From: Escherichia phage Pu-Krd-SF3
Strand: one strand, 5' to 3'
Length of the DNA: 64,000 bases
Sequence record: PQ249397
Under the pieces are notes generated by a model. The model saw nothing but the letters and a program-made list of their open reading frames with translations, searched no databases and had not been told where the DNA came from. The position numbers and the translations under genes are program-made. Each line of letters begins with the position of its first letter. Position 1 is the first letter of the stretch. Shown here one piece after another: positions 2,398 through 3,544 of this stretch.

Positions 2398-2859
2398 ATG
2401 AAAACTTATGCTCAATTTTTAATGACCGAAGCATCCGCTTCAGATGTTCGCGCTGTAGCAACTGCTGCTATTAAAGCTGGTAAATATTCTTATAAAGATG
2501 CTTCTGACGAATCTCGGTACAAGTTCTATGACGATATGAGAGCTGAAGGCTTTGTGGGTAACTATGTTACCACCGCCTGGAAAAGCCTGGTTGCTACTGG
2601 TGCGGCTTTCGAAAAACCTTCTGGTAAACCTGCTCCTAAGGCTGACCCTAAAGCAGCACAAGAAAAAAATATTGCTAAAGGAATTATCTCTAGGTATGAA
2701 GCAATTCTTAAAGAACTTTTGATAATTAAGACCGAAGGCCAGAAACTTGCGCGAGCTTATAGTTTCAAAGATAATCCACATGCTCATGACCTAGAGTATG
2801 TTGAAGACCTCCAAAAAATCATCAAAGACCGCATTTGGTCTGCTAAGCAAATTAAATAA
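2398..2859 (+). CDS. internal-protein-like protein with capsid-targeting-like N-terminus (MKTYAQFLMTEA…)
   Basis: ORF track; N-terminus resembles the T4 IPI/IPII/IPIII capsid targeting sequence MKTYQEFIAEA; SD upstream. Confidence 0.75.
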   Translation: MKTYAQFLMTEASASDVRAVATAAIKAGKYSYKDASDESRYKFYDDMRAEGFVGNYVTTAWKSLVATGAAFEKPSGKPAPKADPKAAQEKNIAKGIISRYEAILKELLIIKTEGQKLARAYSFKDNPHAHDLEYVEDLQKIIKDRIWSAKQIK

Positions 2860-2867
2860 TATTTTTA

Positions 2868-2894
2868 GCCCCGACAGAAAGGTTGGGGCTTTTT
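2868..2894 (+). terminator. rho-independent terminator hairpin, second copy of the 2333-2359 element
   Basis: agccccgacaGAAAggttggggcttttt; one mismatch relative to the upstream copy. Confidence 0.6.
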
Positions 2895-2977
2895 AGTTTG
2901 AATCGCTCGGAGAATGCTGTTACATATAACAACGTGATAAATAATTAATAACCAATAAATTATTTCAAGGATTTTAA

Positions 2978-3544
2978 ATGAAAACCTACGCCGAATTTTT
3001 AACCGAAGCAGCAAAATTACCATCTGAAGCAGATCTTACTAAAGTATTCTTCCACTTGGACCCAAAAGACCGTGGCGATTTTCTTAAGTGGAAAGCTAAA
3101 GCTATTGAAATGTATAACATTGATAATAGTTCTTTTACGATGAGTCAAGAAAATAATTTCAATAAAGCGTTTTTCAAAATTTCTAAGAAACTGGCATCTG
3201 GCAAACAGGTTCTTCCTAAATCTGCCTTAGCTACTCCTGAACGTGCACCTGTCAAAATTTCTAAGAATATGTTCGACACTAAAAAATATGTTAATGCTTT
3301 GAATAAAGCTCTTGATGCATTGGATGATGCAAAGAAGGCAGCCCGTGATCTTCAAGACGTGTACACCGATTTTGATCGCAAAACTAAAGGTTCTATTTCA
3401 AATAGCGAACGCAATAGTGTAAGTGTTTATTCCGATAGCCTTGATGTTCTTGGCGATGCGTATACTGAAATTAAAAATCGTATTAACACCGCATCTAAGC
3501 TAAAAGCTGCCGCAGAAGCTATAATAACTAAACTAAGCAAATAA
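2978..3544 (+). CDS. internal-protein-like protein with capsid-targeting-like N-terminus (MKTYAEFLTEAA…)
   Basis: ORF track; MKTY-EF-L-E N-terminus with an L-x-E cleavage-type motif. Confidence 0.75.
   Translation: MKTYAEFLTEAAKLPSEADLTKVFFHLDPKDRGDFLKWKAKAIEMYNIDNSSFTMSQENNFNKAFFKISKKLASGKQVLPKSALATPERAPVKISKNMFDTKKYVNALNKALDALDDAKKAARDLQDVYTDFDRKTKGSISNSERNSVSVYSDSLDVLGDAYTEIKNRINTASKLKAAAEAIITKLSK

Follow-up and report, generated by a model that had tools for sequence, protein, structure and literature searches.

The window analysed here is a stretch of 64,000 nt from Escherichia phage Pu-Krd-SF3 (PQ249397), which belongs to Tequatrovirus. Two tandem open reading frames (ORFs), ORF1 and ORF2, lie at 2398-3544 on its + strand, directly after nine tRNA genes and the rnaD/rnaC small RNA stretch, and the coordinates given for them in the original prediction, a note made from the sequence of this window, were confirmed. 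Each starts with a short peptide that resembles the capsid targeting sequence (CTS) of the internal head proteins (Ip) of T4. We regard ORF1 and ORF2 as probable new CTS-targeted Ips, encoded in a third Ip locus, and put the probability of this at about 0.7. The elements of the region are listed below; in peptide sequences an arrow marks the known or presumed cut by the prohead protease gp21.

2330-2360, + strand: 3' end of an rnaC-like small RNA with its terminator hairpin (TTAGCCCCGACCGAAAGGTTGGGGCTTTTTGG), aligning to the annotated end of T4 rnaC; insertion site of the cassettes and copy 1 of a 39-nt repeat (repeat family D1)
2362-2369, + strand: late-promoter-like box CATAAATA, 28 nt before the ORF1 ATG, departing from the T4 late consensus TATAAATA only at -13
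2387-2392, + strand: ribosome-binding site (RBS) of ORF1, AGGAAA, as read from the sequence
2398-2859, + strand: ORF1, 153 aa, MKTYAQFLMTEASA..., beginning MKTYAQFLMTE and continuing with ASA
2398-2430, + strand: ORF1 leader, a CTS-like propeptide of 11 codons (MKTYAQFLMTE), with a presumed gp21 cut after Glu11 at a non-canonical M-T-E↓A
2431-2859 (stop included), + strand: presumed mature ORF1 protein, 142 aa, 15.8 kDa, isoelectric point (pI) 9.4
2663-2669, + strand: A7 homopolymer inside ORF1, where insertion of one more A cuts the protein short behind the N-domain and the linker (...AAQEKKYC, then stop)
2865-2895, + strand: terminator after ORF1, a second copy of the rnaC terminator, 87% identical
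2936-2943, + strand: late-promoter-like box GATAAATA at a distance of 34 nt from the ORF2 ATG; RB14 has the same box, and so does P0023, a metagenomic relative, before its gene
2967-2971, + strand: RBS of ORF2, AAGGA, as read from the sequence
2978-3544, + strand: ORF2, 188 aa, MKTYAEFLTEAAKL..., beginning MKTYAEFLTE and continuing with AAK
2978-3007, + strand: ORF2 leader, a CTS-like propeptide of 10 codons (MKTYAEFLTE) with a canonical gp21 site, L-T-E↓A
3008-3544 (stop included), + strand: presumed mature ORF2 protein, 178 aa, 19.8 kDa, pI 9.5
3553-3577, + strand: terminator after ORF2 (CCCTATCTAAATGATAGGGCTTTTTGG), whose tail (...TTTTTGG) rejoins the T4-type sequence at (T/C)ATCTAG
3713-3741, + strand: early-type sigma-70 promoter of e.8, TTTACA-17-TACTAT, the downstream boundary of the insertion site; an annotated early promoter in vB_EcoM_SA21RB

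Each gene forms a cassette of its own, made up of a late-promoter-like box, an RBS, the ORF and a terminator; terminator-like hairpins lie 3' of both ORFs. T4 has no gene between rnaC and e.8: its rnaC terminator TTAGCCCCGACCGAAAGGTTGGGGCTTTTTGG is directly followed by TATCTAAGCC... and then by the e.8 early promoter. At the same junction phage fD1 has TATAAATA, 40 nt, an ORF1 homologue and this terminator once more, and RB14 has GATAAATA, an ORF2 homologue and a different terminator with a tail rejoining ...CTTTTTGGTATCTAG. In other words, T4 carries neither cassette, RB14 only that of ORF2, fD1 only that of ORF1, and the window both in tandem. Other phages with both genes include vB_EcoM_G8, ime09 and fPS-90. 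Because the rnaC terminator is duplicated, ORF1 is bracketed by 39-nt direct repeats that are 87% identical, a ready substrate for gain or loss of the gene by homologous recombination. The curators of the RB14 record named Ip4 and Ip5 but left the ORF2 homologue as 'ncORF136c hypothetical protein'. Silas et al. 2025 speak of 'the two Ip loci' (57B-tRNA.4 and e-denV/vs.8); ORF1 and ORF2, placed between rnaC and e.8, lie outside both. Location in an Ip locus is a habit of the Ip family and not part of the mechanism.

CTS-like leaders and late-promoter-like boxes

T4 IPII and IPIII, translated from NC_000866, start MKTYQEFIAE↓A. The likeness of the two N-termini to this CTS, which had been claimed from the sequence, was borne out, both ORFs having an aromatic residue at 4, Phe at 7, Leu (Ile in T4) at 8 and a Glu-Ala pair at the presumed cut. 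It does not extend further: in BLASTP comparisons ORF1 and ORF2 are alike over the first 12-13 residues only, and their matches to T4 IPI, IPII and IPIII, to RB14 Ip4 and Ip5 and to the Ip-like ORFs of the window are limited to residues 1-13. The statement that the two bodies are unlike the IPII/IPIII-like proteins of the window was likewise upheld, since they showed no relation to the IPIII orthologue, the Ip5-like protein or the Ip encoded at 8489-8749.

The part of PMC9026906 that summarises Mullaney & Black 1996 gives the first 10 residues of IPIII as all that head incorporation requires, and reports that the CTS alone packaged foreign fusion proteins. The same part assigns residues 4 and 7 of this CTS to targeting and residues 8 and 10 to processing, Asp at residue 10 blocking cleavage while targeting is kept. 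ORF2 fits all four determinant positions (Y4, F7, L8 and E10, followed by Ala), and L8-T9-E10 is the sole [LI]xE in the whole protein. ORF1 has Y4, F7 and L8, with a one-residue insertion that brings Met to P3 and Glu to position 11 (L8-M9-T10-E11↓A12). Sites of the form I/L-x-E are reportedly favoured by gp21, with weaker cleavage at other x-x-E sites. Of the (L/I)-x-E cleavage motif that had been proposed for both proteins, the part concerning ORF2 (L-T-E↓A) stands and the part concerning ORF1 needs correction, its allele in the window having M-T-E↓A; processing at this site is plausible but uncertain. The predicted N-termini after processing are ASASDVR... for ORF1 and AAKLPSE... for ORF2, and the unprocessed N-terminal peptide of ORF1 would be TYAQFLMTEASASDVR. 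A start of ORF1 at Met9 was considered and rejected, since Met9 lacks an RBS whereas Met1 has AGGAAA six bases upstream.

Within the ORF1 family the only invariant positions of the leader are M1, K2, Y4, F7 and the Glu at P1, the versions found being FLNE↓A, FLTE↓Q, FLMTE↓A and FLNE(A/V/S)VL(N/T)E↓A. Among these, FLNE↓A, FLTE↓Q and VLNE↓A are canonical sites. The leader of ORF2 is invariant in its family except at position 5. A scan of the 64 kb in all six frames for [YF]-x-[EQ]-F-[LIM]-x(1,2)-E gave only six occurrences, and each of them stands at residue 4 of an ATG-initiated ORF on the + strand (2398, 2978, 7728, 8489, 8811 and 53913). The similarity of the leaders is thus far beyond chance. 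Three of the four other carriers belong to recognised Ip families:

7728-8009, + strand: Ip5-like protein, 93 aa; PHROG 3499, 'internal head protein'
8489-8749, + strand: 86-aa ORF between denV and the IPIII orthologue, MKMYQEFIVE↓ADA; PHROG 2667, 'internal head protein'
8811-9386, + strand: IPIII orthologue, 92% to T4
53913-54077, + strand: 54-aa 61.1-like ORF, MKTYKEFIKE↓DM, with a full CTS-like leader and an I-K-E site; PHROG 1823, no assigned function

The protein encoded at 7728-8009 is 48% identical to RB14 Ip5, and its leader has a second site, ↓SILNE↓AT. Its gene sits after the lysozyme gene e, with an ATG that overlaps the last codons of e, and RB14 Ip5 is found in the 57B-ipI locus, so this Ip family appears to have moved between loci. 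The 86-aa protein is not IPII-like, and the window lacks an IPII orthologue. The 54-aa ORF adjoins the homologue of the gene 61 primase on its upstream side, in the position of T4 61.1 and outside every Ip locus; its body consists of a Gly/Ser/Thr-rich stretch followed by a Lys/Glu-rich tail. We know of no description of it as an internal protein.

It might be thought that the CTS-like N-termini are a relic, that is, that the 5' ends of ip genes, with the RBS and about the first 10 codons, are a shared translation-initiation region or a recombination joint for the shuffling of cassettes, and that the proteins are made late, stay in the cytoplasm and are not packaged. ORF1 and ORF2 do have in common a 45-nt repeat (71% identity) that spans the RBS and the first 8 codons, and the 54-aa 61.1-like ORF bears the motif yet is no recognised Ip. 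Amino-acid conservation, however, falls on exactly the targeting and cleavage residues, while the intervening residues and the synonymous sites vary. In codons 3-5 ORF1 and ORF2 show only synonymous third-position differences (ACT/ACC, TAT/TAC and GCT/GCC), which points to a constraint on the peptide and not on the DNA. The sufficiency of the IPIII CTS for loading foreign proteins, as given in the summary cited above, also argues against a relic.

The second shared element is the late-promoter-like box. ATAAATA is present in 10 copies on the + strand of the 64 kb, two of which lie 28 and 34 nt 5' of the start codons of ORF1 and ORF2; the chance of a + strand ATAAATA in a given 50-nt upstream window is below 0.01. 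A box precedes all seven genes examined from PHROG 2280, the family of both proteins (see below): it is a perfect TATAAATA in fD1 and in phages KP01 and MHG19, GATAAATA in RB14, P0023 and ORF2 of the window, and CATAAATA in ORF1 of the window. The record of vB_EcoM_SA21RB independently annotates a T4 late promoter before its ORF1 homologue, and -13 is the position that deviates most often among the 50 T4 late promoters listed. Judged by these motifs, ORF1 and ORF2 appear to be wired for late expression, when proheads assemble. Over the whole window ATAAATA is under-represented (19 copies against 41 ± 6 expected; all 100 of 100 shuffles had at least 19), a scarcity consistent with the avoidance of spurious late promoters.

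Protein family, relatives and virion evidence

Both proteins match the profile of PHROG 2280 over their full length (ORF1, E=5e-52; ORF2, E=1e-53). The same profile matches a KP01 protein (2e-58) and P0023 (2e-36), and no function is assigned to it. Profile searches returned this family only: nothing rose above threshold for either ORF in Pfam, NCBIfam or PADLOC, nor did sequence searches of the PDB give a match. The best Pfam match, Cytochrome b562 (E=0.008), fell below the cut-off and was discarded, as it reflects helicity only. Source names in all records of ORF1 and ORF2 are 'hypothetical' or 'uncharacterized', and among the records listed none uses an Ip name, in keeping with the description of the two proteins as undescribed.

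AlphaFold2 (AF2) modelled the proteins with moderate confidence, the predicted local distance difference test score (pLDDT) being 73 for ORF1 and 67 for ORF2. The predicted layout is shared: the leader, modelled with low confidence, is followed by three short helices, a Pro/Lys-rich linker that is disordered and, at the C-terminus, a long hairpin of two helices. Foldseek searches with the AF2 models, against the PDB (ORF1 only) and BFVD, brought up family members and, apart from these, nothing but generic helical bundles (ferritins, for example). Profile-profile comparison of ORF1 with ORF2 (hhalign) was weak, with a probability of 38-57%, and the two are architecturally similar co-members of one PHROG, not demonstrated paralogues. 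The pI values of the presumed mature proteins lie within the range of T4 IPI-III (9.0-9.65), and ORF2 is about the size of IPIII.

ORF1-type genes are carried by 511 phage records with 71-100% identity, to which partial matches of 53-60% in Klebsiella and Yersinia phages can be added. ORF2-type genes are carried by 164, nearly all of them at least 95% identical. These carriers were counted against about 700 T-even-like records that match this region. One or both ORFs might be non-functional, either chance ORFs or decaying pseudogenes, and there are disrupted copies that would fit such a view. ORF1 is frameshifted at the A7 tract in several genomes and is split in the closest one, that of Pu-Krd-SF4; truncated forms of 93-97 aa occur on three leader backgrounds, and in RB69 the ORF2 copy is broken up into two ORFs. 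The A7 truncations are either homopolymer sequencing errors or the product of real slippage that leaves only the CTS, the N-domain and the linker. However, the ratio of non-synonymous to synonymous substitutions (dN/dS) is 0.11 for ORF1 compared with fD1 and 0.05 for ORF2 compared with RB14, and both genes are under purifying selection. Moreover, full-length copies with their own RBS, promoter and terminator are found in hundreds of phages, and the ORF1 homologue of fD1 has been detected at the peptide level. Loss of function is thus extremely improbable and, for the intact copies of the window, effectively refuted.

Distant relatives bear on the role of the leader. A protein of the Jiaodavirus KP01 (177 aa) starts MKFKEFLAE↓AS, one of phage MHG19 (180 aa) MLNFNEFLAE↓S..INE↓A, and the metagenomic P0023, which is 31% identical to ORF2 over residues 3-172, MITFNEFLNE↓SEMINE↓A. 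The common form of these leaders is M-x-x-F-x-E-F-L-x-E, with F/F at the targeting positions and, in some, a second (I/L)-N-E↓A site. The N-domain of ORF1 is shared by the proteins of KP01 and MHG19 (56% identity, E=5e-27), whose C-terminal half is different. All three genes lie just downstream of a tRNA cluster in T4-like contexts and have (T/G)ATAAATA 30-45 nt upstream. An exhaustive HMMER search with ORF2 across 1.84 billion proteins yielded 5 representatives, P0023 being one, and no annotated relative. The identity of the bodies of these relatives to those of the window is only 31-56%. The strongest argument from comparison for a functional leader is that leader, promoter and position are kept even where bodies have diverged or been exchanged. 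It also counts against a relic, because the pattern persists where the leader DNA has diverged and body identity is down to 31%.

Mosaicism is seen in the family, where parts of ORF1 or ORF2 are combined with N- or C-terminal halves of foreign origin, as a recombination joint at the leader would lead one to expect. Chimeras occur among the metagenomic proteins P0010, P0021, P0009, P0020 and P0024. In some, residues 9-39 of ORF1 or 98-123 of ORF2 are fused to the end of NudE, its C-terminal part. These are natural deletions of the whole stretch between the ORF and nudE, apparently at short homologies of the kind ...AAR(R)E.... Others combine foreign N-termini with the last 30-65 residues of ORF1 or ORF2, and one consists of the start of e.8 and the C-terminus of ORF2.

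Gene product g140 of phage fD1 (HE956711) is an ORF1 homologue (MKSYTQFLNEAVLNE↓ASS...) with 82% identity. Its unprocessed N-terminal peptide would be SYTQFLNEAVLNEASSTEIQAVAK, and the one expected after processing, which follows VLNE, is ASSTEIQAVAK. Liquid chromatography-tandem mass spectrometry (LC-MS/MS) of purified fD1 particles (dataset PXD026812) listed g140 as particle-associated at the strict threshold, and the Ip4-like g129 likewise; the particle list lacks the product of the adjoining gene e.8 (g139), as it does several further small early proteins. The detection of g140 is supportive but weak evidence that the ORF1 homologue is present in the virion, and it is silent on N-terminal processing. 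It speaks in addition against the proposal that the leaders are a relic of initiation or recombination, which in view of all the evidence we consider improbable.

The surrounding genes

The + strand of the window corresponds to the minus strand of T4. Bases 2200-3800 are 99.9% identical to Escherichia phage Pu-Krd-SF4 and show 90-93% identity to many other T-even isolates. Read along the + strand, the gene order starts with trna.2 and continues as follows:

555-2015: nine tRNA genes, with a segB-like GIY-YIG gene among them
1135-1935, + strand: the segB-like GIY-YIG homing-endonuclease gene, between tRNA-Tyr and tRNA-Arg; annotated with 666 nt in Pu-Krd-SF4
about 2016-2360, + strand: rnaD/rnaC small RNAs, aligned to T4 rnaD/rnaC
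2398-2859 and 2978-3544, + strand: ORF1 and ORF2, followed by the e.8 early promoter
3785, + strand: ATG of e.8, followed by e.6, e.5 and the genes after them
6751-7206: nudE
7243-7731: e (lysozyme)
8057-8482: denV

The mechanical ORF call for the segB-like gene starts at TTG 1135 and overlaps tRNA-Tyr. The tRNA set differs from that of T4 in that tRNA-Tyr is present in the window. A tRNA with a CAU anticodon was assigned to Met by ARAGORN and is annotated as Ile in T4 and RB14. The machinery on which a CTS depends, the gp21 prohead protease and the scaffolding core, is present to judge by PQ759884, a 99.9% identical genome. Genes for a head maturation protease and for scaffolding proteins are annotated there, as are those for a prohead protein and a portal; all lie outside the window. 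Just upstream of the point where the window starts, at 5273-5914 of Pu-Krd-SF4, there are two more annotated 'internal head protein' genes, in the 57B-tRNA.4 locus; together with these, and counting ORF1 and ORF2, this type of phage would carry at least 7 CTS-type genes.

Proposed function and comparison with known systems

The explanation that we favour, at a probability of roughly 0.7 for the whole, is that ORF1 and ORF2 are previously unannotated Ips of the T4 type which belong to one loosely related family, PHROG 2280. Transcription of their self-contained cassettes would, as the promoter motifs suggest, fall to the gp55 late RNA polymerase at the time of prohead assembly. The N-terminal 10-11 residues, which hold the determinant residues, would act as a CTS and dock each protein on the scaffolding core. 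The prohead protease gp21 would then cut after Glu10 in ORF2 (L-T-E↓A) and after Glu11 in ORF1 (M-T-E↓A), and the basic mature proteins, of 19.8 kDa (ORF2) and 15.8 kDa (ORF1), would be retained in the head with the DNA. By analogy with IPI-III they would be ejected into the cell together with the DNA. There they would, if the analogy holds, most likely neutralise a specific nuclease-type defence of the host directed against incoming modified T-even DNA, for example a type IV enzyme of the GmrSD or McrBC kind. The interval between rnaC and e.8 would represent a third Ip locus, with cassettes gained and lost by recombination at the repeated terminator.

Silas et al. 2025 found that T4 Ip1, Ip2 and Ip3 are inhibitors of type IV restriction enzymes of the GmrSD kind; each acts on an enzyme of its own, and there is no cross-protection. 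In the HIDEN-SEQ preprint a CTS protein encoded at the ipI locus, Bas37_0260, inhibits McrBC. The original prediction had invoked T4 IPI as a known type IV inhibitor; with Ip1, Ip2, Ip3 and Bas37_0260 all shown to be inhibitors, the analogy is stronger than that note knew. Provided that ORF1 and ORF2 are packaged, the odds of an anti-restriction role for them would, on this analogy, be roughly even. They might instead be packaged by way of the CTS and have no part in anti-defence, acting as basic DNA-associated or core-filling proteins (the classical view of IPII and IPIII) or as non-specific aids to the ejection or protection of DNA. A pI of 9.4-9.5, a simple helical architecture without a recognisable active site and selection that is strongly purifying, not diversifying, would agree with such a role, as would the lack of detectable GmrSD targets for ip4-10. 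On the other hand, all four Ips with an established function are specific inhibitors of type IV restriction, and the patchy presence of the two genes among near-identical phages suggests a host-specific accessory role, not a general structural one. We therefore judge a role restricted to structure or ejection to be rather unlikely.

Several observations weigh against the interpretation of ORF1 and ORF2 as injected anti-restriction Ips. In ORF1 the Met at P3 and a Glu one residue past the canonical spacing may make processing inefficient, and a test for loss of internal [LI]xE sites, as exposure to gp21 might bring about, showed no significant depletion in the two bodies (P = 0.36 and 0.68). 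Both late-promoter-like boxes are off consensus, with C or G at -13. The regulatory parallel is also imperfect, because T4 ipI, ipII and ipIII have early-type GTTTAC...TAnnnT promoters with hairpins upstream and not late boxes. The specificity of the fD1 proteome is low: 113-137 of 277 gene products were called particle-associated, including DenV, NudE and lysozyme e. A literature search turned up no virion proteomics for a phage that carries ORF2. BLASTP against T4 IPI-III, PDB searches, Foldseek and PADLOC revealed no likeness of ORF1 or ORF2 beyond the leader, in sequence or fold, to a known anti-restriction protein. Finally, an Ip is not automatically a GmrSD inhibitor, since ip4-10 gave no reproducible inhibition when tested against 15 GmrSD groups (Silas et al. 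2025).

If the two genes do encode injected Ips, their family may have a wider significance. It is tempting, though at present rather doubtful, to see PHROG 2280 as a large family of injected proteins that has gone unrecognised and whose genes mark out a third Ip locus, directly downstream of tRNA/rnaC and conserved across genera of Tevenvirinae (Tequatrovirus, Jiaodavirus and others). Its two-domain plan would be shuffled between lineages, and its members may target defences other than the GmrSD enzymes of Ip1-3. If this were true, the exchange of domains would direct a shared injected scaffold against new defences of the host. About 510 ORF1-type and 160 ORF2-type records are at present 'hypothetical' and lie outside the two loci that have been searched for ip genes. 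Several active GmrSD variants are still without a phage inhibitor, and ORF1 and ORF2 are two ready candidates for anti-restriction proteins. Since many of the carriers are therapeutic Tequatrovirus isolates, the genes also concern host range in phage therapy. T4 vectors for protein delivery could make use of the leaders as natural CTS variants. Systems of this kind are familiar, and descriptions of their hypervariability go back to 1994; the proposal is no surprise to a T4 specialist, yet it is useful and directly testable.

Among known systems, T4 IPIII and IPII resemble ORF1 and ORF2 in the length and pattern of the leader (MKTYQEFIAE↓A compared with MKTYAEFLTE↓A of ORF2) and in being encoded by non-essential accessory genes of T-even phages. 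The mature proteins are basic in both cases (IPIII, 20.4 kDa, pI 9.65; ORF2, 19.8 kDa, pI 9.5), and the presumed route is the same: docking on the core, cleavage by gp21 and ejection with the DNA. They differ in that the similarity ends at residue 12 and in their families (PHROG 5341 for the T4 proteins and PHROG 2280 for ORF1 and ORF2). The locus is e-denV in the one case and rnaC-e.8 in the other, and T4 ipII and ipIII have an early-type promoter with a hairpin where ORF1 and ORF2 have a late-promoter box. The target of IPIII is the GmrSD of ECOR17.

The functional model for ORF1 and ORF2, that of a specific inhibitor of a modification-dependent restriction enzyme, is provided by IPI/IPI*, an inhibitor of the GmrSD from E. 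coli CT596, and Bas37_0260, which are CTS-tagged and injected and have bodies unlike those of other Ips. IPI differs from the two proteins in its 19-residue leader (MKTFKEFTSTTTPVSTITE↓A) and in a mature protein of 76 aa, and no similarity between them in sequence or predicted fold was found. Moreover, IPI and Bas37_0260 are encoded in the 57B-tRNA.4 locus, whereas ORF1 and ORF2 lie in rnaC-e.8.

A further parallel is offered by Ip4-Ip10 of the T-even phages, which Repoila et al. in 1994 are said to have described as extra CTS-bearing ORFs that replace one another in the hyperplastic loci of close relatives. They were reportedly recognised by the leader only. Ip4-Ip10 are encoded in the two described Ip loci. 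In a comparison with named Ips that covered Ip4 and Ip5 of RB14, these shared only the leader with ORF1 and ORF2, which are therefore neither Ip4 nor Ip5.

The arrangement of the genes, lastly, recalls the PeSL cassettes or morons of T4-like phages, in which, by the accounts attributed to Arbiol et al. (2010) and Comeau et al. (2014), a single accessory gene is bracketed by conserved promoter and stem-loop motifs. These motifs are said to provide the homology for modular gain, loss and shuffling in hyperplastic regions, as the repeated terminator may do for ORF1 and ORF2. PeSL reportedly stands for an early promoter with a stem-loop, whereas the flanks of ORF1 and ORF2 consist of a terminator hairpin duplicated from rnaC and a putative late promoter.

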